A stretch of 64,000 bases of DNA from Psammoneis japonica. Taxonomy: Eukaryota. The notes under the pieces are model-generated. The model was not told where the DNA came from. It worked only from the letters and a program-made list of their open reading frames with translations, and ran no database searches. Position 1 is the first letter of the stretch. Every line of letters begins with the position of its first letter. The translations under genes and the position numbers were made by a program. Below, piece after piece: positions 2 through 29,119 of this stretch. The DNA lies in assembly GCA_008632985.1 (NCBI GenBank), contig QPGO01000299.1:1-64000 (forward strand), read 5' to 3'.

Positions 2-1273
2 ATTCCTATCACTAGCACTCCCGGACCCCTTCCACATTCAGTGTCGGTGAGTACACATATTAACGTTCCTGCCGAAGCCAATGCCCTTCATTCTAGAAAG
101 AAGGGGATGTCGCTACCTTCTCGCAACAAGTCGTTGTGCTCAGGATGCGGCAAGCCGGCGAACAGCTTTTTAATGGCTATCGACAAGAAGTACCACCCAG
201 AATGCTTCAAATGTATTGGGTGTAATTTAGTCATAGATTCGACCGGGCCCTTTGCCTATATGACCATTGAGGGAGAGAGGCATCCGCTCCACCGAAAATG
301 CTACACAGAACTGTATGGGGTCAAGTGTGCTGTTTGCGGGTGTTCAATTCCTGCAGGACCCGATGGAAAGGTTTCTTTCGTGAAACATCCGTTCTTCGAT
401 ACAGAACAGATGTGCCCCAAGCATGCTTCCGACCCAGGGCGGCGATGTACTGGATGCCATCGTTTCGAGCCTGAAGGACAACCTTTCGCTGATTTGGGAG
501 ACGCAAGTCGTTGTGTCTGCTTCTCTTGTTGTCGAACCGTAGTAGTGGATGGGAACGATGCAAAGCCACTGTGGAGAAAAGTTATTCATTTCTTTGAGAG
601 CAAGTTACAGTTGCCTATATGGAAAGAAATGAGGGAAGTTCCTGTTCTGATTGTCGCGTTTGATGCTTTGAATGACCAGCTGATGAACTCGGGAGGTGTA
701 CATGGAGGTTCCTCTCAGATCATGACTCGCGGCCTGTGCCTTACTGAACACCAAAGCGGGAGGAAGTTCAAACTTTCTCGATTGAAGTTTGATAGGGACA
801 ACCAAAGCTTTGAGGCTTGTGATGTGGAAGAAAAAGGATTCACTTTCTTTCAGGTACCAGACGCGAATAAAGCCAACCCAGATGCGAGTGTCACCGCGAT
901 ACTCTGTCTTTCCGGCCTACCTGGAGATTTGGCAGCTAGTGTTCTTGCACACGAAGCGACACATGCCTGGATTAAGCTTCATCCTTCGTTTAAGATCGGT
1001 TCCCCCATCCCACCTATGGTAGAGGAAGGCGTAGCGCAGCTCGTAGCAATGTTGTTCTTGGCGGATGGGTTAGAACCGGCATCCACTGAAACCTATGGAG
1101 ATAAGGGTCCATCTGATGAGAAGTTGCGGCAGTACTTCAAATTCAGTATCGAAACAGACGACCATGAGATATACGGGGAAGGTTACAGAAGAGCGGCCAA
1201 AGCGTATGCAGATATTGGAATAGAAGCGCTTCTCAGCCATGTTGTTTTGTACAAAGAATTCCCTCTGACTTAA
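2..1273 (+). CDS. DA1/DAR-like protein (LIM zinc-binding domain, LIM-like Cys/His region, C-terminal zinc metallopeptidase); 5' end lies upstream of the window
   Basis: The frame is open from position 2 with no ATG before the LIM region. It has a LIM pattern (CSGC...HPECFKCIGC...HRKC), a DA1-like KHPFF...CPKH...CTGC...CFSC region, TRGLCLTE, and an HExxH motif (LAHEATHAW) followed by EEG. Composition is normal. Confidence 0.85.
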   Translation: MPITSTPGPLPHSVSVSTHINVPAEANALHSRKKGMSLPSRNKSLCSGCGKPANSFLMAIDKKYHPECFKCIGCNLVIDSTGPFAYMTIEGERHPLHRKCYTELYGVKCAVCGCSIPAGPDGKVSFVKHPFFDTEQMCPKHASDPGRRCTGCHRFEPEGQPFADLGDASRCVCFSCCRTVVVDGNDAKPLWRKVIHFFESKLQLPIWKEMREVPVLIVAFDALNDQLMNSGGVHGGSSQIMTRGLCLTEHQSGRKFKLSRLKFDRDNQSFEACDVEEKGFTFFQVPDANKANPDASVTAILCLSGLPGDLAASVLAHEATHAWIKLHPSFKIGSPIPPMVEEGVAQLVAMLFLADGLEPASTETYGDKGPSDEKLRQYFKFSIETDDHEIYGEGYRRAAKAYADIGIEALLSHVVLYKEFPLT

Positions 1274-1462: not shown

Positions 1463-3183
1463 TCACATTTGCATAGGTTCTGGTCGATTCTCTGCATCAA
1501 AATTCATGTTCGACGAAGTAACACCTCGCGTTCCCTCCTTGGCTTTTTGCAACTGCTCAGGATCCAGATTTGCCGCTAGCCATGGATGTGTCAACGCCTG
1601 CTCTGCAGTATAACGATACTCGGTGTTATAAGAGAGAAGAGTGGAGACAAATGCCATGGCTTCATCTGATACATCTCGAAAAAGTTCGTGGGGGAATGTA
1701 TACTCCCCCTGAACAATTGATGCCTTGATAGCTTCATCATTCTTTCCGTAGAACGGAGGCGCCCCACTCAAAAGCATGTATACGATAACCCCGAGACTCC
1801 ATAAGTCACAGGCTTCAGTATATGACTTCTTCAAAACCTCTGGAGCTACATAGTATGACGATCCCACAACTCTACTTAGTCGAGTTCCTGGTGTGAAATG
1901 GGTAGACAAGCCGAAATCTATGAGCTTCAGCGGGCTCCATACGTCTTTTCCGGATTCAAGAACCCAGTTCTCGAGCTTGAGATCCCGGTGGCAGATGTGG
2001 CGAGAGTGAAGGAAAGCTACAGCTGATAGCATTTCTGCAACAGTTTTCGCTACGAACAGAACTAGTGTCGTCAGAAGACAGGGTGACAACGCATTCACAT
2101 TCGTTCGCGCAAAGGATTCAACTCACCGGCATACGCTTCCGTTACTCCGTGCTTTGGGTGAGTAGTCAATAAATGAAACAAATCTCCGCCTCTCCCAAGC
2201 TCAGTTATTATGAACAACTCGTTATCGACACAAAAGACATCAAAAAGACGAATCACATTATCGTGTCCGCGCAGCTCACGCAACACGTTGACTTCCTCTT
2301 GCAGTTTCCCTATGTACTTTGGGTCATTTCGAAGCATGACGCATTTGCATGCGAACTTCTTACGCTTGCCAGAGCGACCGGATGACGAGTGGCCTTCGGC
2401 TTCTCCGCGAGAAGCAATGCAAACCTGACCGTATGATCCTTTTCCGATAACTAAATCACGGTGGAGAAGGTACGCCGGTCGACGATGTGGAGTCGGAGGT
2501 TCCTGAGACGAATCTCCTGTGACATCGGGAGATGGGTAGTTTCCAGTGCCACAGTCTGGTACATTGCTATTCGTAGAGAGCGTGGACTTTTGATTGTTTC
2601 CGAACCGCGGTGCTGGAGCCTGGGGAGGAGGAAAATGCTGCGAAGCGTCACCGTCGGGAACCTGTGGGAAGGCGGTATATTGGAGAGGTGACCCGTTCTT
2701 GTATCGCTGATTAGCTGGCTGAGAACGACTCGAAGCTGACCGGGAAGGAGGTCTTGTCACCCGACTACGAGAGTTGGCATTACAATCAGATCCCGGTTCC
2801 CCGTTGGACAAAGGCCTTGACCGAGCTACCCGTGTCATCCGGCCGGTGGCCTGTTCATATCCTTTGGTGGAAGCAGAAGGCGTGCTAGATCCAGGAGAAT
2901 GCTGATAGCGTGTCTGGTGAGACATCTTACCACGCCTATCATCGTGGCGAGATAAATCGTTTCCTACGGCCACATTCTGCGCGGCAGCGTCATAGCCAAC
3001 CATTGGCTGCGAAGTCGGTGGAGCCGAAGTTTCAAGTGCAGCGGCTGCCGTCCCCGGTGCCATCTCGGTTGTGCGAGATTGTGAACGAATGCGGCCGTCT
3101 TCCAAATTGGCGTTGCCGCTGTTGTTGTCTTCGTTGTCAATGGTTTGCTGGCCAAATCCACCACGACGCAGCCACTTGCTCAT
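1463..3183 (-). CDS. CAMK-group (CDPK-like, no EF hands) Ser/Thr protein kinase; exons 3183-2127 and 2049-1463; about 547 aa with a long low-complexity N-terminus
   Basis: Kinase motifs IGKGSYGQV, FACK, HRDLKLEN, DFG, YYVAPE and DLWSLG are present. A 77-nt intron at 2126-2050 (GTGAGT...TTCGTAG) joins EAYA-A-KTVAEM in frame. The ATG at 3183 (MSKWLRR) is the inferred start. Confidence 0.9.
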
Positions 3184-3487
3184 TGTGGTCTCTATCGTAG
3201 CCGACTGAAGCAGGCAACGGGCAACGGCTGAAGCGCTCTTTACACGCCCGAAACAATAAGTACACATAGGTATTGTTATTATACGGTGTTTAGGTTTATA
3301 TATGATTACGGTGAATAGTTCGTCAATAATCAAATATTCACCAATGCCACCGAAACCTCCTTTTCCCCTGATACATGATTCTGACAAAATAATTGAACAT
3401 ATTAAGTTATTAATTTCTTTAATAATAAAAAGCTATTCAAGGCCTAATAATAAGTTATTCCTTACCACATGCACTCACACCATTTCT

Positions 3488-3532: not shown

Positions 3533-5899
3533 AGACGGTCAGCAGCTCGCGAAAACTGTGAATTTTTGCATGCATGCGCCGCCAGCATGGGCTGTCACTT
3601 GCTTTCAGCAGTCAGGTGCCCCTGCTAGACTATGACAATCCCAAACAGCCACAATCACAACCCCTCAATGTGCTGGCCACAACCCACATTGGGTTGGGGC
3701 AGTTGGCTCCACATTGCAAAACACATTGGTTCCAGCATGTGTTCTCCTGCCACTCAAACCCAAGTGATTGCTTCTTCAGCATGATGGCTCCCTCTCTCAA
3801 CACAGAGTGCAAACCTGTGCTTCATTTGTGCGTGCTTGTTTGCATGTGAAGTTTCCTGCCTTATTTTTTCTGCTTGTGTGCACAATCTTGTCACCTGGTG
3901 CAACCAACATTGGCAGCAACAACAAAAGCACACCAGCTCTGTCACACACTGCCAACTGCAAAGAGGCCTTTTTGCTCAAAAGCTCCAGGTTGTGACGGAA
4001 CACTGTTTGCTCATGCACCACACAAAAGTCACAATGCACATTTCTGCATGTTCTTTTTTGCAATGAATTTTCATGTGCCCCACTGTTTTGAGAAACCCAC
4101 AGATTTTCATTTTGGCCATTCTTTCTGAAAACAAAATTTGGTGGTTGCATTTTTTCACATGTGAAAGATGCAGCTGACTGAGCACACACTAGAAATGACA
4201 CACTTCAAGCATTTGTGCTCAAGTCAATCACAACATTTCCTCTTTTTTGTTGGCTGTTGTTGGTTGTTTGACAGTTTTGTTGCAGAGCTTGCAGGCAAAA
4301 TTCTGTGGGGGGCAATGTCACGTACATGCCAATGTCCCATCTGTGGCTGAAAGGCACGGGCCAGCACCCAGTGCCAAAGTGACAATGTTCCACTGACAGT
4401 CAAATTGCATTGCTCTTGGTTGAGAGTCATTTCAGGTTGAGAACCCATGCATCATGCATCTGCAGGAAAACACACTGTTGCTCTCTCTTTTTCCACTCCT
4501 GGAGCGACGGATCGTCACAAGAACACTTGTGGCTTGCCCCACCTCCTGGCAAACAGTGCACATGTGACAAAGAGAGCAAGTCTGCAGGCAGCCCAATCTG
4601 TGCCTCATTGGGTCATGTCCAATCCATTGACACTGCCAGCTCCCCTCAAAGAACAACTGTTTGCAGCTTTGAGGTGCTCATTTCATGCAAAAATGCTCTC
4701 CAACAAGTTGAGTTTACACCTCAGCAACTGGGCCCAAAGAAAAGGGTCCACATGTAGAAGGAAAATGCAAGCACAGGCAATGCCCAAGAACTTGAGAAAA
4801 CTGACAACACTCTGACAGCCTTGTGTGCCATGGCACAGAGAGACAGTTTTGACCCAGGCAAGAGTGCAAACTCAACAAGTTGTTTCAAAAAGCCTCTCCA
4901 GTGTCAATGTCAATGACCCCAACAACTCAAGCTCTGTGGGACACTTGTGATCTGGCTGTGTCCATCTCAACTGTGCAGCTTAATTGCTGCATGAGAAAAA
5001 CACATGCAATGTTTGACAGCCACTGACACAAAAGTTGTGAAGGCAAGCAACGGACAAGTGGTGCAAAACAATTTTTTGAGCATCCCCGGATGGAACCTGG
5101 GCAAACAACAGCATTTTCATGTTTTTCCCACACAACTGAAAAACCAACACTGTGTTCTCAAACCACTCATAAAAAGCAAACAAAACTCACCCAGCCCATG
5201 AGCCAGTCCAAAGTGGCCACCCCTTGCTCTTGTTTCATTTAATTGCTGCCACAATCAAAAATCCAAAGATCACTGATTTTGACAGGGAAGATGTGAACAA
5301 AGCAGTTGTTGTTTTCATCTGCAGTGGCCACATTTGAGGCTTGAGAGCTTGAGAAATAGAGCACCTTGTGTTCGTCCAACTTGAGAAAAAGAGCTGCAAG
5401 GTGAGAAGACACCAGCAAGACACCACAAAGATCTCAAACTTGTTGCACAACTCTGCTTCCCATCAGAGCGCCATGATCATCCCTTGGAAGCAGTTTGCTG
5501 TTTTGGTGCTCAACAGTTTGCCATTTTGGTGCTCAACTCTGCTGGCAAATTGTCCAGCTCCGGCATGTGTCCCATGCTCAGAGGTGCAGACACCTTTGTC
5601 AAAAGAGACACCCTCCAGTCCTCTTGAGTGAAATGCCTTGAAAGAAGAATCAACCAATGACAAGTCTCACAGAGCTTGTTCTTGCCATTGCCATCATTGC
5701 TCCTTTGTCAGCATTGCCACGAGGCAAAGATGATGTGAGCTCTGCTGTCTAACCTCTTTGGGAGCATCGCCACATGAAAATGCCATCCCACCTGGCCATT
5801 CTTTTCCATCATCAGCCATGACTCTTCCATGTGTGCACCCTTTCGTCACAAGTTTGGCTTCAACGGATTTCTCATGGCTGCTGAGAGCAATGTGTTGTC

Positions 5900-8146
5900 A
5901 GTGTTTGGGTTGACCAACCAAATGCATTTTGAAGGGAAGCCTTGTGTCATCATTGATGTGTCAATGTTGTCCAGATCCATCAAAGATGACACCCATGGAA
6001 CCCAACTTTTGCCAGCAGATGTGTCTTGTGCATCTGCAACCATCTCTCCTTTCTCAAGTGATGAGCCCACAACATTGAGTCTAAAGCAGACAACAACTTT
6101 TGTTGTGGCATTGTTGACAATTTGTTCGCAGTTCCCCAATTTGGAGACAAAGAGCACAATGATCCCTCTGGGCACTTTCCATTGCAGCCTTCAATGAGGA
6201 GCTCACATTGGCTCCACACCAAATGAGGAAGTTCCTTGGGAGTGCATCAAAAGCAGCTGACAAACTGCAAGAGAACTTTTGACATTGATGAAAAAGCAGT
6301 GTGTGCTGGTGTGCTTGCATCAGGAAATTGCAAACTTCTCTCAGAGCAAGCATCAGAGTACAATGACAACTTTCACTCCATTCCTGCCTGTTTGCACCAT
6401 TGCATCACAAATGAAGAAGAAACATTGCTTTGCCACATGCCCTCCTGGTGCCCAAGTTTAGATGGAGATGGTGCTCCAAGAGCACGGGCATCTGGTCTTT
6501 GGAAACTGATCCCAGTCCTTGGATTTGTGGTAAAACCAAACCTTCTTTGTGTCCCATCACAATGCCATGGTCATTCCCCCAAGTGTTTGTGCTGGCTCCA
6601 AGAGAGGCCACTTTGGCCTCTTCTCACTTTTGCAGCTTTGTTGATGCAGGAACACCCAGATCAGCATGACTGGACCAAGTGAAGCTGTCAAAGTAAAAAT
6701 TTTTTCTCCTGCCCACCACACCCTTTTCTTTTTTGTGTTTTGGGGCAGGTGCTCACACATCTCTTGGGAACCAAGGGAGCTGCTGAGGATGTGAGCAAGG
6801 AAAGCTGATTGGATGTTGTGCCTGGAGATCATTGAGAGGACTAGTGGAAATGCCCTCTCCACATGGGGATTTATTTTTACAACAAGCTTCCGCCACAATG
6901 GGCAATGCCATGGTGTTTCTTTGTTGCTGAGCCCAGAAAGCTTGGATGACCCCCCAGGTTGACTCCAGGGTCATGCCTTTGAGCCCTCACTGCTGTTCAA
7001 GCAGCAAGACCCTGTGGAGGGTGTGGCAAATTTTTTTGCTCACCCCCCCAGTGTGACTTGCATGCATCTGCCAACAAGTGCATTGAGTTGTGAGACTCTT
7101 AGTTGCATTTTTAGCTTGTTTGGTTTCCCAATGCTCTCTCAGTGGTTTGGTTGTTGTTTGGGATCAAGTTCAAGCCTGGTGTTCATGCACATCAGCAAAT
7201 TGGATCCACCTCCTGAGATCCAATCTGTCACTTGCAAATTGCTGCAGGTTTGCTGCAGGTTTTCCCTCCTCCTGCATGAGGCATGAAAACTTTTGCAAAA
7301 CCCACACTTCCGGCATCAAGTGATGTTCAAATACAAAGCTGAGCATTGTTTGGAAAACACCCATGGCCAAGAGTGTGATCTGCCAAATGGTCATGAAGAG
7401 GGTGGAGAACAGCCCCAGACAAGCTGCAGCATGATCTGGAAGAGAAGCTTCTGAAGGATTCAACTTCATAACTCCAAAACAACAGCTTTGGACAACTCCG
7501 CTTTCTGTGACAAGTTTGGCCAGTTGTCAGCCTGACCAGTGCTTTGCACTGGCACAGGTGACATGAAAGACAAACTTTGCCATGAGAAAGAAAGTTGGTT
7601 TGTGGAATGATGCCACCTCATCTTAGGGTTTGGCATGCCAGCTCAGAAGACAGCCACTGTTCTTGCTCTGACAACTCATTTGGCTGCTCCTCTGACAAGA
7701 AAGAAGCAACTCCTTGGGCCATCCAAAAGCATTGGTTTTAACATGGTGTCAAAAAATTTTGACAATGCTGTGAGTTCAAAAGAAAATTCAATGTGGTGGC
7801 ACAAGCTTTGCACAAACAAAGCAAAACAACCAAATCTAAATTTTGAGCACCATTGCTCCATTGACCCACACTTTAAGCACACCAGCAAGTGTGGCAGAAA
7901 CTTGCAAGGATTGGCCAAGGTTGGCACCACCTTGTGACAATGCCTGCCTGAGGAGGCAACAGGGAACAGTGAGACAACACATTGCAGGGTTTGGAGCAGC
8001 AGCTGCCTGTCATGCCACAATGGCCAAGGACAGTTGCACTTAGAAATTGGTTCAAGAGCAGCAACATGGCCACCAGGAGTGGAAAGATCACCACACAGAG
8101 CAGAGAGCTTGACAAGCTGGCAAGCAAGGAAGGGTTGTCTCCAAGA
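5900..8146 (+). mobile_element. Highly decayed retroelement remnant, possibly DIRS/Ngaro-like; continues after the nested insertion at about 13447-13900
   Basis: Only fragmentary motifs remain (FxQFP, LGFVV, DGDG, VPG...ALS, W-x-QKNFDN). The sequence at 13450-13875 is similar to the minus strand of 34840-34990, so it is a repeat family. Confidence 0.3.
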
Positions 8147-8598
8147 CTGCGTCTGGTGGGGCAACAATCTGAGATGCAAGCCAGCATGGCAAAATTTCCG
8201 TTGCTGCAGAAAGTCGGATTTGTCCTACATTGTTAATTGCCTGATGCTAACACTGCATGCCGGCGTGCAGACAACTGATGTTGTGTGTTAAACCAAGCTA
8301 TAATCTCACACGCTCATGCCTGAGTTGATTCATGCAACACATCACCTGCCACGTGTCGTTAACACCACGTGGTTCGTCCCACTCATTTTCATCTCACCTG
8401 TTTTTACAACACGAACAATGGCGCCCCCCTTTGCCATTGGAAATGATTGTCCCATGTGCGGCAAACGGCAAACGTTTTCTCCCAACTGGTCTTCAACACC
8501 ACCTGAGAACTTATCTTCCCTGCAAACTGTCCTTTTCTCAAAGCCTTCGTGACGTTTCTTCCCGTCAATCTGACGCCGCTCATGGTGAACATCCCCAA

Positions 8599-9906
8599 AT
8601 GAGAGAATCAGATGAACAAGTGGATGTTTCTGCCTCTTCTACCCTCGGCTCTCCTCCATTCGAATTTATCTCCGCAGGGCCTGACTCCAACGAATGGCAA
8701 AATCCACAAGGTTACACCCGACACAATCCCCGCCCGTTGCACTCCAATCGTGCACCTTCATCTGTGCCAGAGCTGTGTGGTTCCCACAACAATTCTGTTT
8801 TTCCCCACACCGATGATGTTTCAGACTGCCAGTTTCCAGACCCTGAAGAATTTGTTTCCGACACCGAGGGTTCTACCACCAATGTTGCAGATTCTGGCCC
8901 TTTTTCCACAGCACTCGATCAAGTTGGACACCTCTCCGCGGATGAGGACCTTGTTGTGCCCAAAGTGCACAACTGCAAAATGACATCCATGGTCCGCATG
9001 TTGAATTTGTGTTGCTCCAAGGGTGTCCCAATCAGTGCAACAGATGAACTGCTGAGAACTGTGCAGGAGGAATTCTCCAGTGGTGGGTTGTCCATCACCC
9101 AACAAATTCCCTCTTCTAGAACTTTCATGTCCAAGCTCAAGTTGATGTTGCCCAGCATTGTGGTCCCGGTGTTGCAGTGCGTTCCTCTCAAGTCTGTGTC
9201 CATTGTCAACCAATTCAAGAACGACCTGCCTCAGGAGCTCTCTCCCGGCATCCCTGTGTACGACTTTTCACTCCAACTGCAGGATCTGTTTGACGATCCC
9301 CTTTTTGCCGATCTTTCAAATTTTGATGTTTCTCCTGATTCACGTTGGTCTCAGGTGCTCTCCAGTGAACCCATGTTGGACAAGAATGGTGACTGGAAAC
9401 TTTGTGACAATGCTGAAATGAAGGACGGTGAAACTTGCAGTGACTGTTTTCGTGGCAGCAATCATCCCGCCGTTCCCGGTTCCTTTCATGTGTTTGTTTT
9501 GCATTGCACTGACAAAACTGGGAAAGGACAGGTCGCACCTCATTCGATGGAGCCATTTGTTTTCTCTACAACTCTCATCAAGTTATGTGCCCGCCGTCGT
9601 TTTGAAGCATGGCGTCCTCTCGGATTCGTTCCGAAACACACAGGTTGCAAAACAAAGAATCCCATTTTCAGGCTGAATGTCAGAAATTACCGTGCACATG
9701 TTGCCGAGAACATTTGTTGCTTCAGTGATCAAGTCCCATTGGAATGGGTGGTGGACGATAAATGTGGTGACAGTTGGAACACAACAACGACATGGCAGGA
9801 GAAAATGGATGTTTGTCACAGAGTGGGTTGTAACCCAGCGGAAGAAAACAGCGACACAGTTGCAAAGAGGTTGTGTGACATTGTGAACACATGCGCTGCA
9901 GTGTGA
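8599..9906 (+). pseudogene. Plavaka-like transposase, N-terminal part only, mutated
   Basis: Motifs PVYDFSLQLQDLFDDP, VLHCTDKTG (read as xxYxDKTG), SMEPFVFS and AWRPLGFVP are recalled as typical of Plavaka-type transposases. Recognisable similarity stops near 9720. The 524-codon ORF has only 4 Tyr. Confidence 0.65.
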
Positions 9907-11639
9907 AGAGCATCACCTGGGACTACAACAAAACACAAAAGAATTGTCCTCAGCAATGAAAATTGAATTGTACACAATCTCTGGCTTATTTTGGTGACAG
10001 TGTGGAAAATTGAACAAAAAATCAACCCTTTTTTGACGACAGTGTGTCGATTTATATCCCAATTATGTGAAATCAAATCAACAAGGTGAAAGATGAACAT
10101 TAAAATTTTGCACTCACTTTCAGCGACACATGACAAACAAATGGTGCGATTAGAATCCCCGGTGTGTGGCCCCACAAAAAAAAAAATTTCGATGCCGGTG
10201 ACTGTGCAGAATCGAAATGGCACTGCAGCTGCCACCCATCACAATCCATCAACAGAGAATCGGTGCTTTGATCGAACATGCTGTGTTCCAATTGCCAACA
10301 GCATGACACACTGGGTGGCCTGAGATGCCTTGCATTGACCAAAGGCATCCTGGAATGTGTGTTTTCTTACATGAGCTACAGGATGATGTTGAGGGTGCAA
10401 TTTGTTAACCAACTGTTGTTGCCACACGTGCTCAATGCTTTGAGAGAAGCAGTAAAGTGAGACAATGCATTGAGAATGTGGAGGCGCGACTTTGGCGATC
10501 CCAGGTGCACTTTAATGTGGAAACACTGGGTGGACAGGCCACTGCGTGAATTGTGAAGAGAGCACATTGAGAGAGAATTTCGGATGATGAGTTTGCATGA
10601 AAAACTGGATAAAAACAGAACTTGTGTCGACTGCAGAGCTTTCAATTATTGTGTCTCGGTGGGACACATGGATGGTGACATGCACCGCAGGTACAGCTTG
10701 CAACCATTTATGAAAGGGTGGATAAAAAAGGAAAAGATCCATTGCGACACGTGCATGGACAAAGTGACGTTGACGATGGATTTGGTGGACTTGGAATTGG
10801 AGACACCGGTGCACGTTTCGCAGCAGCTGCCTTGCGCCATTGTGTTGGCTTGCCACAAAGGAGACAAAGAATGCCACTGCCCAAATGTCATGTGTGCTCT
10901 GCTGCCTGTCAGAGATGGTGAGGTGAGAGTAAGAGGAGAAACCAGTGTGGATGTGATTCATCTGGATGAACACAACAATGGTGACAGAGCCCCCTGGCCT
11001 TTCGCAGAGGGACATTGCCCCCCACTGGTGAGCGGAGACACAGCAGTGTACGACAAAGCACTCTTGGGATTGAGGGTGTTCTGCACTGGAGTGCACACAG
11101 CCAGACATGGTCACAACGGTGGATTGTACGAAGTTGTGGAGCACTTGTACGAAACGCACAAGACGGCGAGAGAAGAAGCGGGAGTCAATGAGGAAAACTG
11201 AAGGGTGACAGCAAGGCTGGGGCGATGAGTGAGGGCAAAGAGATGAGCCTAATTGCCTGGGCCTAGATGGCATAAAATCGAACTGGTGCATGCCAAATCA
11301 AGGACATTTTTAATGGAACAGCAAGTTACAAACAATGTCAAAACGGTGCTCTGTTCGTTGTGGGCAAGAAGCTCAGGGCGGCTAAGAGCATGGTGACCCA
11401 GATGGCATGGCGATGTGTCGCATGGCAGATAAAAACGCAAAAAGAAGTGTTCGGACTACAGCCCTTGCTTCTATGAAAATCTGGCCAAAAAAATAAAATC
11501 AGCTGGCAATTTGAAAATTGTGGCACACAACAGTGGGGAGTGCCAATGTTCTTCGCGCGGATCATGAAATGCACAGTGAACGGATGATGCAAGGCTGACA
11601 ATGACAAAACATGCCATTCAAAAGGAATGTAAAATTCAT

Positions 11640-13011
11640 CAATTGATGTTTGACAATGAGTGCTTTGAAAATTTTGGCATGCAATAAAAGGGAGTTTTTA
11701 AAAAGGGCCAACGGGTGTGCTGGCGGGCGCACCAAGGACTGGGTTCGGTCCAGAGGGAACAATTTCGTTGACACAACACGTGGGAACAGGTTGGCAACAT
11801 GTCGGTACAAAATGATTCATCAGGTGCGTATGTTGCGGTGACAATGCACAAACGGGTTAGCCCACTCACGCTGCTTGTGTGTCCTTCATCATGGTTGGCA
11901 CCCATGACACAACAGATGCAGGATCCCACAATGTCAAGATTGCGGGAATGTCAGTGCCAGCTTGGAGGCGGCAAAGAAAAAGTTTATGGACGGCCAGACA
12001 ACCGACTGCATTACGACAGCAGTGTGCCCCAAGACAAAGTTCGTGATGCACGACAAGATTGAGTTGGCATTCGGGAGCAAAATGCAGAAAAAGGTTTGCA
12101 AACACCTCAACGTGGACGCGGGTGACTGTGCAGTTTGGTGGGAAGAGAACAAGGAAAAGGTGAGGAAAAGACTGAACAGAAGAAGAAACAACAGACAGGA
12201 GGCATTTAGAAAGAAGATGGTTGGCAAGTAAAATTTGGGTGGCAGGTGGATGAGATGGAGCAGTGTTCTCACCCATTGATTCTTGCTCGGAAACGGCTAA
12301 GTACGAGGGACTAGAAACTGTCAAAGACATCGAAAAGGGCAGGGCATCACCTGACACTCACTTCTGGTTCTTGGAGAATTGCTGCTCCCTTGCAGCAGGA
12401 ATGGAACACTTTAAAACAACAGACAACCAAGGTGTCAGCGATTGGCCAACAACAAGTGCGGAAGCTTTTGCCAGGCTCATGTGTGACAACTGCCACAACA
12501 CGGCCTTGTCAGTGGCAGAGATCGAAGAGCAATTCGAAGCCAACGGAGGGGCGCAGCCACTGACCCAACCCGTGGCCCCCAAGTGCATTTTCATGGGGAA
12601 AGGCGCAAAACGAAATCTCAAGGATGGAACCAGGATGGGATCGACAAGTACAACAAACTCTACGATGCTGTGGCAAAGGAGAGAACGGATTGCGGCAGAG
12701 TCGATGCACAGCACCTGCAGACAAAGAAATTGGAGAGCACTCGTGGCAAGAAAAGAAAGAAGAAAAAGAAGGACAGCATGAGGGGATGGGCTGCTCCGAA
12801 AACTGATTGGAGCGACAGCGAGGAGGAGGCCACTGAAAGGAACGACGAGCAAGGGAGCGAAGAGGAAGAGGAAGAGACTCCAGGAGCAGCAGCAACCGAC
12901 AGCAGCACTTCGACACAAATGGGTTCTCGACAAAGAGGAGTGAACAACAACACACAAAAGCGACTGAGGGTGCAACAAGGACGCGTGCGGAACGGCAGCG
13001 GCGTTTGCTAG
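11640..13011 (+). pseudogene. Accessory ORF of the Plavaka-like element (frameshifted, probably one intron)
   Basis: Fragments ...LNRRRNNRQEAFRKKM, PTTSAEAFARLMCDN and GWNQDGIDKYNKLYDAVAKER, followed by a K/E-rich tail. It is homologous to 51540-52750 in the second TIR element. Confidence 0.55.
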
Positions 13012-13573
13012 CATGTGGCAGAAAATGACGGTGGCAGCGATGTTAACCAGGAAATCCACTCAGTTCGGAAGGTGCAGCAACATAGAATGTGAAAAGCATC
13101 AAAGTGTTGCACTGCAAAATGATGGGAATGTTGTCCATGTGCTTGTTAGATTTAAAGCAAGGTTTGAAAGCAATGTGAATTGGGGGCTGTCACAAAGGTA
13201 AATTGTTGCACGGTGAAAAGTGGATGAGTGTTACACTTGAAAATGTCAGAAACATTCTCCGCATGGTCATTGCATTTAAATTTTCTTGTGACACATGACA
13301 AAAAAAATTAGACAAGAAGTGAGCTTTCTGACACAGTGTGTAAAAATTTTTAAATTAAATTTTAAAAAAGAAATTCAGACATGACGGGCAAGAATGTCGC
13401 ACAAGAGTTCGCGCACTGTGTCAGATTGTTGCCCCACCAGACGTGGGAGGCAAGAAATGGGAGGACTTGATGACATGACCAGTTGCAGCTCATCTCACAC
13501 AGAAACAACACCAGAGCTCTCACAGAAATGCCCATGTGTGCAGCAAATGGATGCCCACCAAATGATGTGAAAG

Positions 13574-13849
13574 TGACAGGATTTGAACAGGATTTAGGTG
13601 CACGCGAAATGTCGCACGCTGTTTAGTTTACCGCACACAGTTTTGTGTGCTTTAGTTCCGCGCGTTCACGCGCGATGTAGTTTGCTTTCGAGCCACAAGG
13701 CTCACAAGAACAATGACAGTAGCCCAACCACACTGACTTGCATGTCTTTCGGCTCCTGTGACGGTCTCTGAGTGGAGACTCATCTGCCATTTAGACAGCA
13801 GCAAGGAGTTATTGTTTGAATTCTTGCCATTTGCCTTCAATTTCTGTCA
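13574..13849 (+). mobile_element. Solo LTR (276 bp) of a Copia family, with a 5-bp TSD GAAAG
   Basis: It starts TGACAG and ends CTGTCA (terminal inverted repeat). GAAAG lies at 13569-13573 and 13850-13854. It is homologous to the LTRs at 35582 and 54317. Confidence 0.9.
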
Positions 13850-14299
13850 GAAAGGATGACTCATTTTCACACTCCTGTGTGCCCCAGTGGAGGCAGCACT
13901 TTTGCCACTTAGAGTGAAGGACTTGACAGGACAACAGGGAGACAAAAGATTGTAGAGGACAGATGGGTGTGGATGAGAGCAGTTCTGAGATTAGACTGTG
14001 TGGTCATCCCAGGGTTTTTCAGGAGGGTGCAGAGTTTACACTGAAACCTGTTGGAAATTACACTTGAATCGGCAGAAAATTACAAAAAGTCAACAGGCTT
14101 GCAAACCACAAGGCATCAATGCTGGCTGTTTTCCACCAGAGAATGTCACTCAACATGCTGCAATGAAGCTGTGCCATTGGCAGAGATGGCCAAAATGAGC
14201 TGACAGCAGCAAGACCTGGGGAAACACTGTCTGAGAAGGGTGACATCAGCACCAGAGGGTGCACAGAAACACATGCAGAGGCTGAGGGTGAGCAGCTGA

Positions 14300-16100
14300 C
14301 ATCAAAAAGTTTGTGCAAACAAAACAACACAGACATGTGGTGGACATTGTTCAAGAATGGAGTTGCGTGCTGGTTGAACTTGATTGTCAGGACAAGAGCA
14401 TCCTGGCTTGTGTTCCATGAATTTGGCAGCCATGAAGGAGATGTCATCTTGAAACCAAAGAGTGGAAGTGCACTTTGCAGGTTCTTGTTGTTCATGTGTT
14501 TTTCCCTTGAGGTTGTGCCAACCAGCAAAGCATTGAAGAGCAGTTTCCTGCAGAAACCAAAAGAGTGTGAGTTGAAGTTCCTGTCCATTTTCTGTGTGGT
14601 TCCAGGTCCCTTTCAAGAGAGTGATTCTCATTTGAGCTGTGAGCCCCAAAGTTTTGTAAATCAAATGAAGTCCCTCATCTTCTGCATGAAACAATTGGAA
14701 AACAAAGGCCTTTTTGGAGGCCATTGTGAAGCATTGCTGAGGGTTCCAACAAAGAGAAACATGCCCAAAATGCAGGCCACATGGGTGGGCCATCTGGACT
14801 TGTGTCTCATGACAAGCACACAGCACAAACACAGCACAAGGAGAGCTGGTGCACAACACTTTGCACCAGAAGAGCTGGTGGACAAAAATTGGCATGGAGC
14901 TGACCACACCTTGGGTGACCATGGTCCTTTGTGTGCCAAGCTGATGCTGTGTCCTCAGCCCAAAGACAAAGCATCCAGATGGTGTGGCTGATGCCATGGG
15001 CACCCTCCCAGAACAAGACCAGCTCAACAGTTTCCCAAGAATGTGGTCACTGTTCCACGGGGAAAAGTTGTCATCTCACCCAGTGCACCCCCTTGTGTCC
15101 AGAACCTGTGGAAACTGTTGGTGAGAATGATGCCGGATTGGGCCTCAGATCAAGATGGTTTCCAAGTGACACCAAGTTAATTTTCATTTCTCTGCTGACA
15201 GCCCCAGCAACTCCATTGCAAAAAGAGTGTTTGCTGTCATGATGTGATTCATTGCCACCCATGTTTCCATTCCTGTCCATGGGAAAGGCACAAGTAGAAT
15301 GACTGGGCAATGGCAAAGTGGGGCACTGGCAGCCCAACCTGGAGCCATGTGTTTTGCACAAAGAGATGGTTGCATCACCAACATCAACCTGAAGCTTGTC
15401 ATAGAGAGATGCATCTGCAAAATGTGCTTCGTTGCTGGTGCCAGAGACACCTTTGAGTCCTCAGATGCACCTGCAGTGATGTTTTCAGATGAAGGAGAGT
15501 CCATGCATCAAATGATGACAGGCATTGCTTTCAGGGGTGTTAAAAGCCCTCCCCAATGGGCCTGCAGACCTGGCAGACAACCCAGGAATCATTGCTCTTG
15601 TTTCTTCGTGCAAAAAAGAGGGCATGGGTGATGCATTGTTGACACCTTGCACAAATGAAGAAGGGCATTGTTGCACATTATTTTGGACAGCATGTTTGTT
15701 GGCACAGATCAGTGCACATTGGAACCCACCCACAACAATGATTTGACAAACTTGTTTCCAAGGCAAAGTGAAAGAATTCTTGTGACAAATTGCCAGCCCT
15801 TGCTGACATGGTTGCAGCCAAACAGAAGCAAAGCAACTCTCAGCAGAAACTGCTGAAAGGCATGCTTGGATTGTGCTTGTACAAAGCAATCACTTTTCCT
15901 CCCTGTCAACATGTGCAAGAGCTGCATCTTGTGGCTGAGAGAAGGAAGCAAACTGCTCTGACCTTGCAAAAGAATGCAAAGATGGTCAAGAAGTGCCCCC
16001 AAATCCATGAGCTGCAGAAGTTTGCCTGTCCTGAAAGATGTGTGTGTCCATTGCTCAAGAAATGTCAGAAACTCACATGTGTTGTTGCTCATTTTCAAAA
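14300..16100 (+). mobile_element. Decayed retroelement remnant, possibly a DIRS/Ngaro-type RT
   Basis: The fragment MMTGIAFRGVKSPPQW (about 15510-15560) resembles an RT FGG..SP motif. The rest is unreadable. Confidence 0.25.
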
Positions 16101-16597
16101 AGAGGAAAACACAATGTCATGATGGAGAAAAATTTGAGGGTGGGTGGGTGATGCAGAGTGATTTGTCTGGACAAGCCAACACAGGGGAAACAAAAAGAAG
16201 AGAGAGTTCATGTGCCACCACCAATGGCCATGACAAAAACCAATGCTTTGAAAAAAAAAGTGTGTCTCCACAACAAAAAAAGATGGCTGTGCATTGGAAA
16301 AACAGACAACCAGAGAGTGGGGCAGGTCACTCTGCATCAGAAGAGCACACAACAAGAGAGCAGGATGGGCAAAACAAAGGGTTGGGATTGAGCAAAGCAG
16401 TGCACAAGTTCATTGGCATCAGCGGCACAGGCAAAAAAAATCAATGACTTGGCCATTCTCTTCTCAGCAAGCTGTGCACTCTGATGCAAACATGGCAACA
16501 TCAGCTGGGACACTCTGCAATGCAAATGACACAACAGCAAGAGTCAGGGTGCTTGGCATTTTACAAAGCTTGGAGAAAATTTGAACATTTTCTTGCT

Positions 16598-16738
16598 GCA
16601 AACACTCTCAAAATGGGTTGAGAGCAGTTTTTGGCAAGAGAGTGAGTGCTCTGCATTTTGCAATGCTTGCAAATGTGAGCTTCATTTGCAACCACTCTTA
16701 AAATGGGTGCAGAGCAGTTTTTGGCAAGGGAATGTTCT
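16598..16738. repeat. Two diverged direct copies of a ~45-bp motif, ~90 bp apart
   Basis: cactctcaaaatgggttgagagcagtttttggcaag versus cactcttaaatgggtgcagagcagtttttggcaag. Confidence 0.7.
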
Positions 16739-17249
16739 CTTGTTTTTCACATTTGAACAGAAAGATTTAAGAGTGTGATGTCTTGCAAAAGCTTCTCATG
16801 ACCTGCTTTAGAACAACTGGTTGTCACCAGAAAACTCTCACTTTGTGTTTGTCTCATTGTGAGACATTTTTTTGTCACACAGAGACAATTGCACTGGTGT
16901 GGTGAATGTGTCTGTGGAGCTGTCTGGGAACTCTTTGTTGTGCAAATGCAACTGAAGTGCAGGGTCACAGTTTCTAATGCCCACAAAAAACCTGCCCTGT
17001 TGCCACCTTATTTCTGAGTGGTGATTCTCACATGAGTGAACTTGCTGCCACAACGCAGCATAAAATGAGCAGTCAAATGCTCATCCAGCCCCTCCAGGGT
17101 GTGCTCATTGGCTTCTTTCTGAGCTGCACCCAGCTCCAAAGCTTCTGGGTTTTGAGCTCACTCACAATCCATCAAATTATTTGGCATGTTGGGAAAATTT
17201 GCTGAGAAACATCAGTTTTAAGATTGTCCTCTGCTGTCATCCAAAAATC

Positions 17250-19300
17250 CTTTGGGGCCACAGGTCAGCTAGATTCAGGCAATGTCATGAATGCCACATT
17301 TTGTCTGCACAGTTCTTGGCATCTCCAAGCCAGTGAACAGAGCATTTCTGTCAATGGGAAAACTTTGTCACTGGTGGCAGCACACAGGTTGACATCAGTC
17401 AAAATGGTGAAAGCACTGAGACATCAGGTGTTGAGCCAGTGATCTTGTTTTCTGCTGGGGCTCTGCCTCCCATGTGCTGTGCAACATTGAGAGCTTCTAA
17501 ACATCAGACAGCACATGTCTGTTTGAGCATTATGGAGAACCAAATGTGTGCTCTGGCTCTGGATGGTGGGACCTTGCAGCGCTGGACTGTGACAGAAAAT
17601 TGTTGATGGTGCATTGTGCAAAAGCAATGTGCACTTTTGTGTGGCCCTGTTTTGCAAAACATGCAGAGTTGGGCTTCAGCCACATCTGACCACAAAAACA
17701 AGTTTGAAACTGTTTGTCAAAGCAAAACTTGCCTTCAACCACTTGAAATTTTAACTGCAGAGGATCTTTCTGAATGGAGGGCACCTCTTGTTGGGTGCTG
17801 CATTCTTTGCAAATGTCCTTGGTTCATGTTTTAACCATCTCAGGTGTGCAGCCAAATGGAAGAGACTGAGGCACCCTGATGTCACCATGAACAAAGGCTG
17901 TCACTGCTTCCACATCATCACCTCACTTTCTTGTGCCACAGGGACAAAACCTGTTGTGCCTGGGGCTGTGTTGGCAAAGACATTCCCTCCAGCATCACAC
18001 CATGAACTGGCTTAACTTCCAGGTCAGTTGGTCAGAGGAACGCTTGTCTTTTGTCACTGGACCCTCAACTTCTTTGAGAGATGGCACACTCAAAATTGTT
18101 CACCAGGGGTGATGATGGATTTGGCAGATCATTGGCTGTTGCTCCATTGAGCTCAGGGTCAGTGCTGTCTTGGTGAGTGTTGCAAATTGCAAAAGCACAT
18201 GATGCAAAATCTTTGGCATTCCTGCTGCAAAACTTGAAGCAAAAAGCACTCCATTAGAATGGGCGAAGCAGCGGAATGATGTTGTGGACTCTGGAGCTCT
18301 TGGAAATGTGAACAATGCCTCCTTTGAGAGCTTTCTTCTACACCTTCCTTTCAGGTGTGATTCAAAGACTGATGTTGCTCTTTCTGGTGCAACTTTTGAT
18401 TTTGGAGTGCAACAGAGTGAGTCAGACTCTTTTCTTGAACTGTCCTGGGCCATTTTGAACAATCACCAACCCACTCATGGGCAGTTACTTGGGGATGATG
18501 ATTGATGAATTGGTCACTTGCCTCCCAAAAAGCACAGCTTCATGGGCTGTCAGCAGGTGAGGTTGACTTGATTCTGGGTCAACTCATGTGGCAGCAGTTG
18601 CAAAAAGAAGAGCATTCTTTGGTGGTCTGTGCTCTTTGGACCATGGTTGTGCAGTGACAGCTCACCATCAGGACTTGACAACATTGTGAAGTTGAAGCCA
18701 GCAGCACAAGTGTCAGCACGCAAGTCCAAGTCATTTGTGGTGATGCCCCCCAGCACTTTGAGCTGACAAGATGGTGAGGTGAACATCTGTTGAGAGTTGC
18801 CTGGAGGATTGCACAGTGCCAGCTGTTTGGGCAACTCCATCTTGCAGCAACCATTGAATGCTGGTGCAGTCATCTGCTGTTTTCTTGTCAACACCTCAGC
18901 TGAACTCAACACTGGCATCAACAGCCAGATGTTTCAGTGTTGGCTTTCCCCTGTTGCTCTGCACTGGCAACCTTCCCCACAGAGCAAATTTTATTTTCAT
19001 TTTCATTTTGGTTGTTGACAGCATGCCTGCAGTGCTCTGAACTTGGGGATGAATGTTGTGCAGCTGTGGAGACTGTGAATGATGGCAACTGCAGACCCAT
19101 TTCTGAGTCAGAGCATTTTGCAGCAAAACATTTGGTCATTTGAGTCGTGCACTCACTCTTCATGTGCATGCAGGAACACCTCCATTCATGAACAAAGATC
19201 TCCATTCACAAACAAAAAGCTTGCTCCAAGTTCATCTTGGTGCTCAGTGAGTGCTGCACAATTACAAATGGAGCCTTTGCTCACAAGGGCATGACTTCAG
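17250..19300 (-). mobile_element. Decayed Ty1/Copia (CoDi-like) fragment: protease and integrase remnants
   Basis: The minus strand has protease-like DLDLRADTCAAGFNF (about 18735-18690, compare ELDSHADTCVAG), integrase-like KPNSA..QNRA (about 17680-17640) and VHWLG...TLPES (about 17340-17270). Confidence 0.55.
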
Positions 19301-21436
19301 GGGGCAGTCAAACATGTGATCTTTGTGATGTGGGTTGTTCACAGGTGACATTTGGCTGTGTCAAAGAGTCTGCTCAGTGGAGTGAGTGCCAGTCATGCAG
19401 GCTTGCACAAAATGCTGCTTTTGTGCAGTGCGTCTGCTGCTGTGGGGGAGTCTTGCAATGCAAGATTTTGCTTGTGTGTGCCACTTGTCAGTGAGTCCAT
19501 GCTGCAAGCAGCCTTGCACTTGCATTTTGCCTTGCTTGACCAACCCTGATGCTGAGCTTTTTCTCCCAGCTGCTGCTTCTGTGGCCTCCCTTTTGTCTGC
19601 ATCTGCCTCTCCAAGTCCTGTCAACACAGCAAAAGGCAAGTCGGGAGCTCCATTTTTGGCATTTTCAACCAGAGTCTCAATGTGCTGCTGGTGGCAAGCC
19701 TTAAAACCGTTGAGCTTTATGGCATCCACACCAACCACACTCATTCTGGTCTTTGGTCTTGGGTCAGAAACACCCTTGTTCAAAAAAATCAAAGACCTTC
19801 TTGGTCTTGGCTGCAGGCCAGGTTCTTGCAACCTCTTTGTGACAGTGCTGAGTGCACACTCATTGACAGTGGGGCAACCCTTCTGGCATGCTTGGCAAGA
19901 GCCATCTTTGCATGGACATGGCCTGGTTCTTGCATGTGTTGGTGGCAGTGGAGCCCTCTGCCTGCTTCTTCAAGGCAAAGAATTTGTCACAACTGTCTCA
20001 AGTGTGGCTGGATGGCCTGATCAATGCTCACCCAGGTCTGTCAATCACTGGCTTCTTTGTTGTGGAACACAAAAAAATGCTCTCTGTCAAGATTTCACAG
20101 GGGCCAGTGGCAGCATCCTTGTCTGTCACAGGGTGTTTGGCAGTGAGCATTTCTGCAGTGACAACTTCATGGTTGTGATGAACAAGGCAGATGAGCAAGA
20201 CACCCATCTTGTGATTCTGTGATGATGGCGGCACACCTCTGTCTCCAGCAGCTCTTGGAGCATCAGCTGGCCACAGATTTTTTTTTGAGAAGTGCAGCCA
20301 ACTTGGAACAATCATCCAAGCCAGTGAACTTGAGCTGTTTGAGCTCAGTCAGATGCACTGTCTGGGTTGCAACAACTGGACTGGCAAGATGGCAGGCATT
20401 GAGACATGTCCTCTTGCCCTCATGCAATCTGCCCACACTTGCAGGGGGGGGGGGTTGGCAGCTCTTCCAGTTTGCCAAGTGTGGTGGGAACTGGACTTGA
20501 GTGTTGGCACCATCATTGACCACCTTGGCAATGGCTTTCAGCATTTTGCCAACTTCCATCAGCAGTGCCTGTTCCAGCATGTCACTGACAGCTGCAAAAA
20601 TCCTGCCATGCAATGTGCTGGCACATGTTTGGTTGTCACAACCACAGCACATTAGAGAGGCTGCAAAGGCTGTGCCAGTGGCAGTGGCCACAATGTGTGG
20701 CCAATTGTTTGGATTTTGGTGCATCAATTCTCACCTTTGAGCAAAATTGTGTGGTGGTTGGCTCACTTCTGTGAACCCTGTGAGCAAATCTATGAGCACA
20801 GCAAGCTCAATCTTTGCATGTTGTTGCATGCTGAGAACAATGCCAAGCTGACAATCAGACAATTGACATGTGCCAAGATGCCAAAGTGAACATGTCCACA
20901 TGTCTTAGCTTGTGCACAGCATTGGCATAATTTGCAAATTGCACTTTGATGATTGTCTTGGCACATTGCTGCTCTGACCAATGGAGCACACAGATCATGT
21001 TCACAACAATGTGCTGTGGTGGGCACAGCAAACATGGCAGTTGCGCCAGCTCCATGGGGCTGCCATGGCACTTGTTGCAATGATTGATTGAACACAATGG
21101 TGCCATCATTGCACAAATTCATGGTGTCCTCTTTGGTCAACTGAACATCACAGCACCAGCTTTGACAAAGCAAGTGAACGCGGCATGACAGCAAAAGAGT
21201 TGCTGGTGCAGACAAGAAAATGAGTTGATGCAGCAATCAAGAGGTGCTCCAAATCAAAATGTGAGAGTTGTGGAGCTGCACCCCACTGCATGGGCAACAG
21301 TTGATGCTGCACGAATGTGTTGTGCACAATGTGTGTGCACACGTCCATGTCCACAATGGCACACCAGCATCAACTCAAAATTGTTGAGAGTTGAGTCATC
21401 TTCCAATGCTTTGGTGCTGCTTTCCCAGGCTGCAGT

Positions 21437-21504
21437 AAAAATGGCAGAAGCCACAAGAGATGCAGAAGACAAAAATGGCAGAAGCCACAAAAGATGCAGA
21501 AGAC
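21437..21504. repeat. 34-bp tandem duplication
   Basis: aaaaatggcagaagccacaa(g/a)agatgcagaagac twice, with one mismatch. Confidence 0.9.
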
Positions 21505-22109
21505 ATGAAACAGAACTGCAGTTGGGTTGACAATCAAGCCAAAGAATTGCTGGAGCATGTGGAGGGCTCCATCAAAAACCCACAAGATCAATCAAGAAAG
21601 CACAAATCCAGTTGGGATGTTGTCAAACACTTGCTTCTCAAAGACATTGCAGGGAGAAATTGAAGCACTTTGATCACAACAGACAAAAGAGCATGGTGCT
21701 TGCTGCTGTGACAAAGTCAGGCAGTTGGGAGAATTTCAAGAAACAACATGACATGAAAAAGAACTTAAAAGGAACCAAGGGGAGCACTCAACATGATGTC
21801 AAGGAACTGCAAAGGGAGGTCAGAAAAGTCAGAGAAACTCACAACTGACTGCAGGCAAAGATCTCATTTTCCCAGAACCAGCCAGCCAAGGAGTTTGGAG
21901 TGCCAAGCCTTTCTTGAAGCTGTGAGTGACTGCTGCACAGCAGCATGATGTGATGGCAAGACACATCTGTCCTTGCCGCCCACCACTGGCACGTCAGAGC
22001 CAAAGTTGATGGATGGTTTCATGGAGCTGGCAATTGGTGTCAAAACAGAGCAGCTCTGTTGTGTCCCCTGGCTGACAAATCTGAACTCCATCAAAAATCT
22101 GTTTCAAGT

Positions 22110-22558
22110 GCAGCATGCATGCAGACAAAAGGTTGTTTTTGTCACGCCCTTTGTGACATTTAAAGGCTGTAACACGTCGCCATGGTGCATTGACTCTCAT
22201 TGGCAGCTGTGTGTTGCACTCCTCCCCATGCATCACGCGTCCACACGGCTCTTTACTGATGTGTGCTGACACTGCGCGGTTTTGGCGGAACAGTGTGGGT
22301 ACGTGCGAAGGAACATGCAGAACTGCACAGAGTTTTGCACGTTCGACAGTGATCAACGTTGCTGCAGACAACTCCCACTCAGGGTTTCGAACCCCTGGCC
22401 TCCTGCCTGATGGTTGCGATGAACCACTCCGCTATGAATTCACAACGCAGCATGCATGCAGACAAAAGGTTGTTTTTGTCATGCCCTTTGTGACATTTAA
22501 AGGGTGCAACACGTCGCCGTGACACATCAACTCTTGTTGGCAGCTGCACATTGCACAA
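22110..22558. repeat. Direct repeat of ~110 bp (22110-22219 and 22447-22558) enclosing a tRNA-like segment
   Basis: gcagcatgcatgcagacaaaaggttgtttttgtca...ttggcagctg...ttgcac occurs twice, 337 bp apart. Confidence 0.85.
22370..22441 (-). pseudogene. tRNA-derived sequence (SINE head or tRNA pseudogene)
   Basis: The minus strand has an A box/D arm TAGCGGAGTGGTTCATCGC (GCGG pairs with TCGC) and a B box GGTTCGAAACCC. The anticodon and acceptor stems do not pair. Confidence 0.55.
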
Positions 22559-29013: not shown

Positions 29014-29119
29014 CTTTTCAGTCTCCTACCGATAAGCTTCTCTCCTCTTGCTATTCTTGGTTTGAGAGCTTAGACGACGTGGACGTGGGACGAAACGTAA
29101 CGTGGACGTGGGCGAGGAG

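Follow-up and report, generated by a model that had tools for sequence, protein, structure and literature searches.

What becomes of the dinucleotide TpA in DNA that a genome treats as foreign? Among the closest described systems is that of Bigelowiella natans. Mutation-accumulation lines of that alga show hypermutation at TpA only, with a rate of about 6e-7 per site and generation in integrated viral DNA that is silent, and an ADAT2-like adenine deaminase has been proposed as the cause (Mettrop et al., bioRxiv 10.64898/2026.01.13.699255). TpA-depleted coding sequences there are enriched in DDE, reverse-transcriptase and transposon domains. Comparable features, namely change from TpA to TpG or CpA only, confinement to foreign or silent DNA, and long-term TpA depletion with gain of CpA and TpG, mark the stretch studied here, positions 1 to 64,000 of contig QPGO01000299.1 (assembly GCA_008632985.1) of Psammoneis japonica, called the window below, and within it the terminal inverted repeat (TIR) transposon at 8150–13443, called element 1. 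There are also differences. B. natans is a rhizarian, a chlorarachniophyte, and the present organism is a diatom; mutation was measured directly there, whereas here it is read from composition and copies alone; the B. natans targets keep much TpA (Rho 0.45), in contrast to 0.06–0.09 in the old DNA here; and the sections of that report consulted describe no CpG loss alongside, whereas in the window the two losses occur jointly.

Decay of methylated CpG in transposons, as in vertebrates, plants and diatom repeats, is like the present case in turning CpG into TpG and CpA within repeat blocks of kilobases to tens of kilobases, genes being spared; unlike it, such decay cannot yield TpA loss. Fungal repeat-induced point mutation (RIP) has in common with it context-specific transitions aimed at repeated or foreign DNA, which erase the coding capacity of transposons. 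However, RIP turns CpA and TpG into TpA, and for the window it was rejected: the TpA enrichment that it predicts is replaced by the opposite, destruction of TpA with TG and CA enriched at observed/expected (o/e) values of 1.5–2.5. Searches of the literature on diatoms found no description of joint CpG and TpA loss, nor of TpA hypermutation, and the loss from diatom repeats of nearly all of both self-complementary pyrimidine-purine dinucleotides appears to be undescribed in the literature searched. If true, TpA-directed mutation would be present in a second major marine algal lineage, after its first experimental description in 2026, diatom repeat DNA would lose TpA as thoroughly as CpG, and the process responsible would have common targets with DNA methylation.

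The interpretation favoured here, with a little more than even confidence, is one of parallel decay, in which two channels act on the same blocks with the same borders and deepen jointly with age, TpA loss running at about one to two times CpG loss. The repeat compartment would then be subject, side by side, to transitions from CpG to TpG or CpA and from TpA to TpG or CpA. The CpG channel is most likely deamination of methylated CpG, though we infer both the enzymes and the role of methylation, and the TpA channel is most likely TpA-directed editing or mispairing, by analogy with B. natans. Both channels would begin and end at common borders and deepen with age, and element 1, at CpG 0.61 and TpA 0.23, would lie on a trajectory common to the other repeat blocks of the window, in which o/e for TpA is about 0.4–0.5 of that for CpG.

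The window, which is nuclear DNA of a diatom, is non-genic over about 50 of its 64 kb, and the dinucleotide composition of that share is extreme. Over the whole window o/e is 0.34 for CpG, 0.19 for TpA, 1.68 for TpG and 1.67 for CpA, and over long stretches CpG and TpA are each below 0.1 with TpG and CpA at 1.5–2.5. CpG o/e is 0.06–0.15 in old blocks versus 0.93–0.97 in the two blocks of genes; the latter have a TpA o/e of 0.57–0.67, non-coding edges included. In a 500-bp map, depletion of CpG and depletion of TpA occupy identical blocks. The change points for CpG and TpA at gene/repeat borders are 3585/3635 and 29655/29525, i.e., 50–130 bp apart, and at 3635 and 29525 TpA o/e falls within about 100 bp, the gene blocks being spared. 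Among non-genic 1-kb tiles, of which there are 53, CpG o/e and TpA o/e are correlated (r 0.76); through seven intermediate blocks, as CpG declines from 0.73 to 0.15, TpA goes from 0.34 to 0.063, with a log-log slope of 1.07 and r 0.93; and a model with a single age per block and one rate ratio fits 11 repeat blocks (deviance 13.2–15.5, 9 degrees of freedom, df). A first-pass annotation of this DNA had held TpA loss to be uncoupled from CpG decay. Common blocks, common borders, the proportional fall and the one-age fit do not bear that out, and co-variation of the two losses, the very outcome that had been named beforehand as refuting it, is what was found. Within the window both losses strike the same DNA and progress in step, and the earlier interpretation is overall partly supported. 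Diatom methylation is reported to be mainly at CpG and to cover repeat blocks, up to 30 kb long, that alternate with unmethylated gene-rich DNA (PMC5124317; PMC9998398), and the block pattern of the window matches this, methylation here being presumed by analogy with those other diatoms.

That TpA has been converted in place in repeat DNA is a matter of observation. The density of pyrimidine-purine steps per bp is 0.227–0.240 in genes, 0.243 in element 1 and 0.232–0.243 in old DNA, and the share of those steps contributed by CpG plus TpA is 0.41–0.43, 0.20 and about 0.03–0.06, respectively. Repeat pairs within the window are 85–97% alike as purine/pyrimidine strings versus 70–80% in letters (97% and 77% for 36290–36466 against 43279–43457), and many of their discordances set TG against CA. 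Double loss thereby hides repeat families from ordinary similarity searches, and the purine/pyrimidine alphabet recovers them. At conserved Tyr columns the first open reading frame of element 1, ORF1, has Cys (TGC) and His (CAT), and one conserved Tyr column of the transposase family has the codon TGC in the window, with His in P0121, a homologue described below. Change of TpA to TpG or CpA goes from A:T to G:C, and deamination of 5-methylcytosine in CpG goes from C:G to T:A. TpA loss is therefore not a by-product of 5-methylcytosine deamination, and on this point the annotation, which had made it a process of its own, was right. In the pair just named and in others, TG/CA discordance exceeds what would be predicted from the few surviving CpG and TpA, and in one pair 14 of 46 steps are discordant with transversions at only 1.7%. 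Such an excess suggests very CpG- and TpA-rich ancestors, strong rate differences among sites, or cycling between TG and CA via short-lived CpG or TpA. Pair counts from ten within-window repeat families are too saturated or too small for rates.

Element 1 retains 182 CpG (o/e 0.61, Poisson 95% 0.52–0.70) and 81 TpA (o/e 0.23, Poisson 95% 0.18–0.28). Only 4 of the 524 residues of its ORF1 are Tyr (0.8%), Cys and His being at 4.2% each; among the first 60 of 151 homologues tabulated Tyr is at 1.9–4.7%, the exceptions being P0121 (1.1%), P0122 (1.3%) and P0171 (1.2%), and Cys plus His come to 8.4% in ORF1 versus about 5% in homologues. The description of a nested element that retains CpG yet is poor in TpA and Tyr holds good, and both strings that had been quoted from it are present, at about 8545–8580 and 12981–13005. 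The contrast in composition is real and significant, the ratio of TpA o/e to CpG o/e being 0.37 in element 1 versus 0.64 in genes (binomial p 3.7e-5); the value for element 1 is not different from that of other repeat blocks (0.47; p 0.095). Host DNA on both sides was said to have lost both dinucleotides, and this is so of the old stretches listed in the table, but the right flank is not all old, as CpG-retaining DNA at 13560–13900 follows 13447–13559. The element at 47223–53161 was taken for a weaker version of the same pattern; its o/e values are 0.34 for CpG and 0.17 for TpA, and it is unrelated to element 1, with no DNA or protein similarity between them (protein threshold, E-value 1e-3) beyond a low-complexity stretch.

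Coordinates of the features discussed (strand given where it applies)
Feature	Position	Strand	Remarks
DA1-like LIM protein gene	2–1270	+	
Protein kinase gene	1466–3432	-	
Old repeat-derived DNA left of the insertion	4001–8146		CpG o/e 0.085, TpA 0.088, TG and CA about 1.5–1.9
Three bases earlier counted as repeat	8147–8149		CTG; partner 13444–13446 is CCA in the same orientation
Left TIR of element 1	8150–8172	+	23/23 complementary to 13421–13443; one CpG, no TpA
ORF1, 524 amino acids, Tyr-poor	8332–9906	+	8563–9690 appears to code for an N-terminal transposase part, Plavaka-like (CACTA-type)
Rest of element 1	9907–13420	+	Purine-rich + strand; open frames 10584–11201, 12263–12781, 12583–13011; no recognisable transposase core
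Right TIR of element 1	13421–13443	-	23/23 match with left arm
Short element of very high copy number, separate young copy	13560–13900	+	14 CpG and 8 TpA present
Old repeat-derived DNA to the right	14001–22000		CpG o/e 0.057 (25 CpG), TpA 0.068 (38 TpA), 1868 TG+CA
Myosin gene	about 23628–29025	-	
Old copies of the high-copy element	35582–35827 and 54317–54551		
Second TIR element, intermediate decay	47223–53161		Perfect 15-nt inverted ends 47223–47237 / 53147–53161; CpG 0.34, TpA 0.17

Judged by its sequence, element 1 would belong to a multi-copy family of Plavaka/CACTA-like TIR transposons, as a young copy that is truncated internally and lies in much older repeat DNA. It is like Plavaka or CACTA-type (KDZ) transposons in having TIRs and in that the family of ORF1 reaches PF18759 via distant members, and unlike them in that it holds only the N-terminal part of the transposase, in a frame which has no Pfam match itself. 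A word-indexed near-length search among 3316 candidates gave P0121 as the sole match to ORF1 (48% identity over amino acids 203–453); P0122 is 40% identical to ORF1 over 8563–9690. By exhaustive search 640 proteins were matched as the family of P0121, and of 10 members scanned two were above the Pfam cut-off for PF18759 Plavaka and one just below; a Pfam scan of 8 frames of element 1 had nothing at threshold. When 151 family members were compared with the window there were 124 matches, 123 of them within 8563–9708 and one, weak, at 59717–59962. Since residues 337–738 of P0121 have no counterpart anywhere in the window and none of the matches within element 1 extends past 9708, this copy is truncated; it is presumably non-autonomous and dependent on others for its movement. 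Its limits had been put at 8147 and 13446; inverted-repeat ends do exist there, but the perfect repeat consists only of the two 23-nt arms. Extension of the TIR in the purine/pyrimidine alphabet gains only three further bases, a longer two-letter alignment beyond them not being meaningful; the three (8147–8149 against 13444–13446) match only as pyrimidine-pyrimidine-purine, a TG/CA discordance with a chance probability of 1 in 8, and may or may not belong to the repeat. In one contig from a public sequencing run 7943 is followed immediately by 13444, the base next to the right arm, which from a single contig is a boundary hint only. The sole candidate for a target-site duplication is a 2-bp TG at 8148–8149 and 13444–13445, within TG-rich DNA, and a metagenome scan with the TIR pattern of element 1 gave 0 matches.

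Contigs of that public run, which may be the source of the assembly itself, were placed at 80% likeness over a stretch of about 7 kb. Their summed depth over element 1 is 360–2661 versus 31.5 in unique flank, and the family is therefore multi-copy; the likeness classes from below 90% to above 99% hold 767, 1239, 950 and 680 contigs (for the whole 7-kb stretch, with the high-copy element included). The context of differences was read at the 40 places listed among 1251 variable ones, and 35 of these 40 are in element 1. At the 35, at least 93% of the depth from other copies differs from the window, and the window's own letter was assembled at 15 of them, at one to three times single-copy depth. 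If these differences are private, the copy is young (about 0.7%), and its perfect TIRs also indicate youth. The 35 comprise 11 transversions, 14 plain transitions, gains of 4 CpG and 3 TpA, 2 CpG losses and 1 TpA loss, a list that is blind to sites also mutating in other copies and so gives no two loss rates. A tally irrespective of context at all 1251 places (A>G 244, G>A 242, C>T 214, T>C 192, transversions 359) cannot separate losses in the window from losses in other copies.

How fast is TpA lost relative to CpG? The answer matters for the dating of insertions and for whether one chromatin state directs both losses. The per-site ratio of TpA loss rate to CpG loss rate is about 1–2, at most a modest excess, its exact value depending on the model. 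For the 53 tiles it is 1.5 (95% 1.1–2.3) under one set of assumed floors, the floors, the starting CpG and the common starting TpA being assumptions, and when floors and starting CpG are altered the best ratio ranges from 0.65 to 1.9; the tile model is also mildly overdispersed (deviance 72.4, 51 df). The block model has a ridge along which the ratio is 1.0 if TpA started at o/e 0.35, 1.4 at 0.45 and 1.8 at a gene-like 0.6, and with a gene-like start it rejects a ratio of 3 (deviance 41.0, 9 df). Pooled old blocks hold 105 CpG, 132 TpA and 5421 TG+CA; if they are at equilibrium, both losses would proceed about 40–50 times as fast as the regenerating transitions (TpA about 41 times), and the rate ratio would be 0.80 times the GC-to-AT bias, i.e., 1.3 at a bias of 1.6, as in the 21 private transitions listed, and 1.8 at 2.21, the bias measured in Phaeodactylum tricornutum (PMC6604790). 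The claim that TpA loss is the faster is weakly supported, by the modest excess of the tile and block fits; the best ratio shifts with the floors assumed, and the high-copy family points the opposite way.

That family, represented by a separate young copy just to the right of element 1, serves as an internal test, being the one family whose majority letters were readable. Summed contig depth at 13584–13817 is 370,880 versus 31.5 in unique flank, which means of the order of 10,000 copies. The young copy differs from the family majority, among the places listed, at 13602, 13616, 13635 and 13726, all four CpG to CpA, and at 13728. Losses at 4 of 18 CpG and 0 of 8 TpA are thus counted on the assumption that all near-fixed differences are among the 40 of 1251 places listed, and ratios of at least 1.5 are disfavoured (twice the log-likelihood difference 4.5). 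At the TpA sites of the young copy (14 comparisons) the old copies have TG in 5, CA in 4, TA in 3 and something else in 2; at its CpG sites (27 comparisons) they have CA in 7, TG in 5, something else in 15 and CG in none. Retention of 3/14 TpA versus 0/27 CpG gives a Fisher value of 0.034 for two copies that are not independent. The majority sequence of this element is CpG-rich and has the motif TTTAG four times; it may be a short interspersed nuclear element, a miniature inverted-repeat transposable element or a satellite unit, and Rfam on 13300–14300 had nothing meaningful (one match, E-value 0.67). Three metagenome loci matching a 21-mer of it were set aside as chance, as only 21–22 letters match and their CpG o/e is 1.1–1.2.

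Might TpA mutation instead be independent and clearly faster, by two- to threefold or through an initial burst, and act soon after insertion, young elements being TpA-poor and CpG-rich for that reason? We regard this as doubtful, but a good part of the evidence leans its way and so weighs against parallel decay, as do the assumptions behind the tile fit, its overdispersion and the limits of both high-copy comparisons. The TpA:CpG ratio of element 1 is far below that of genes; that of repeat blocks as a set is 0.37–0.52 versus 0.64, and extrapolation of the repeats to undecayed CpG leads to a TpA of 0.41, not 0.57–0.67. With a gene-like starting TpA, fits give ratios of 1.5–2.0 (1.7 for tiles) and the block model rejects a ratio of 1 (deviance 59.5). 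Locally, nearly full CpG goes with very low TpA, both in the acidic coding tile 12501–13000 (o/e 0.82 and 0.11) and in the block 22145–22585 (0.70 and 0.24), the latter being just downstream of the myosin gene and containing two tandem copies of about 110–135 bp. Compared with 149 homologues at positions where these have Tyr, ORF1 has Tyr in 7.7% of comparisons versus 41% in a homologue-homologue control, with His at 12.7% and Cys at 12.2%, and Arg is kept far better, in 27.7% versus 39%; no more than 5 Tyr and 7 Arg columns underlie these values. Some lines of B. natans show bursts of TpA mutation, up to 2e-6 per site per generation (bioRxiv 10.64898/2026.01.13.699255). However, tiles (twice the negative log-likelihood difference 13.2) as well as blocks reject a ratio of 3 if the start is gene-like, the proportional fall leaves no second, slower TpA phase visible, the young high-copy copy has lost CpG and no TpA while the old copies keep some TpA and no CpG, pooled old DNA has slightly more TpA than CpG, and among the 35 near-private differences, a list biased against sites mutating in many copies, there is only one TpA loss. 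Action soon after insertion is accordingly not supported, with no early burst seen. The offset in TpA between genes and repeats could come from an early strike, from decay inherited from long-resident source copies, or from families that are intrinsically or adaptively TpA-poor. Inheritance of decay is plausible where, as here, a family is presumably non-autonomous and its copies differ widely in age. A rough calibration from the private plain transitions listed and the equilibrium rates, and so dependent on those differences and on the equilibrium assumption, has about a fifth of CpG and TpA lost since the split from the family majority; it suggests that most of the TpA deficit is older than the insertion. 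Within parallel decay, then, part of the TpA deficit of element 1 was probably inherited from an already decayed source copy and did not arise after insertion, its share being an estimate.

A further alternative makes low TpA mostly a property of the family, which would be intrinsically TpA-poor or selected to avoid TpA editing by the host, with little decay of this copy or its recent ancestors. Tyr is scarce also in the related, intact-looking frames of P0121 and P0122, which come from other assemblies, and P0122, with Arg at 7.8% and normal Cys and His, has at two conserved Tyr columns Phe, a conservative change which also removes TpA; if the two rates are equal, the repeat blocks as a whole are fitted best by a TpA that started at 0.35, and the acidic coding tile again fits. 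But Cys and His at conserved Tyr columns of ORF1, with its Cys plus His excess, amount to decay and not to conservative avoidance, selection on the protein of a truncated non-autonomous copy is unlikely, and unrelated blocks have the same TpA:CpG ratio. We consider this alternative improbable. P0121 (738 amino acids) and P0122 (717) are long open Plavaka-like frames of other public assemblies, with Cys or His in the former and Phe in the latter at conserved Tyr columns, and from these sequences the same pressure seems to be at work wherever else this transposon lineage is carried. A further speculation, which we think unlikely, is that a TpA-directed editing defence of diatoms, similar to the process in B. 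natans, would fire on new insertions before methylation-linked CpG decay, families would answer with TpA- and Tyr-poor sequences, and the gap between genes and repeats would be its footprint. Modified bases are a possible source of systematic miscalls, and deficits of CG and TA might on that account be base-calling or assembly errors. No observation made here speaks for such errors. Contigs of the public run, with the reservation about its origin already given, match the depleted stretches 7500–8177, 11632–12088 and 13823–14273 letter for letter (0 other letters), old repeat copies differ mutually by independent TG/CA choices, and proteins of other assemblies carry a matching Tyr-to-Cys/His pattern, so that an artefact is very improbable indeed.

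There is a consequence of the double loss for annotation. Window-wide, TAA and TAG disappear, and in-frame TGA comes almost only from CGA. As the loss removes the codons for Tyr along with two stop codons out of three, transposons that are dead retain long open frames, by which gene finders are misled: the 64 kb has 104 open frames of at least 130 amino acids, on both strands of dead repeat DNA too, and in a Pfam scan of 81 non-genic frames outside element 1, 79 had no match and 2 had weak irrelevant ones. Open frames in the repeat DNA of the window are no evidence of genes. Two frames in moderately decayed blocks, 59501–61000 (+, 500 amino acids) and 62577–63872 (-, 432 amino acids), have no Pfam match, and the former has a single weak match (E-value 0.003), to the C-terminal part of the Plavaka-like protein P0208. 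The myosin has a best identity of 77% among 120 homologues listed, and the organisms named there are Bacillariaceae sp. and Thalassiosira exigua. Strand asymmetry is strong in 36001–46000, with GC skew up to +0.24 and then -0.23, and there CpG is about 2.4 times TpA by o/e (0.15 versus 0.063; counts 92 versus 40), unlike the oldest blocks, where TpA is slightly above CpG. Four units, each about 315 bp long, are arrayed in tandem at 30219–31470 and are 70–73% alike in letters and 85–89% as purine/pyrimidine strings.

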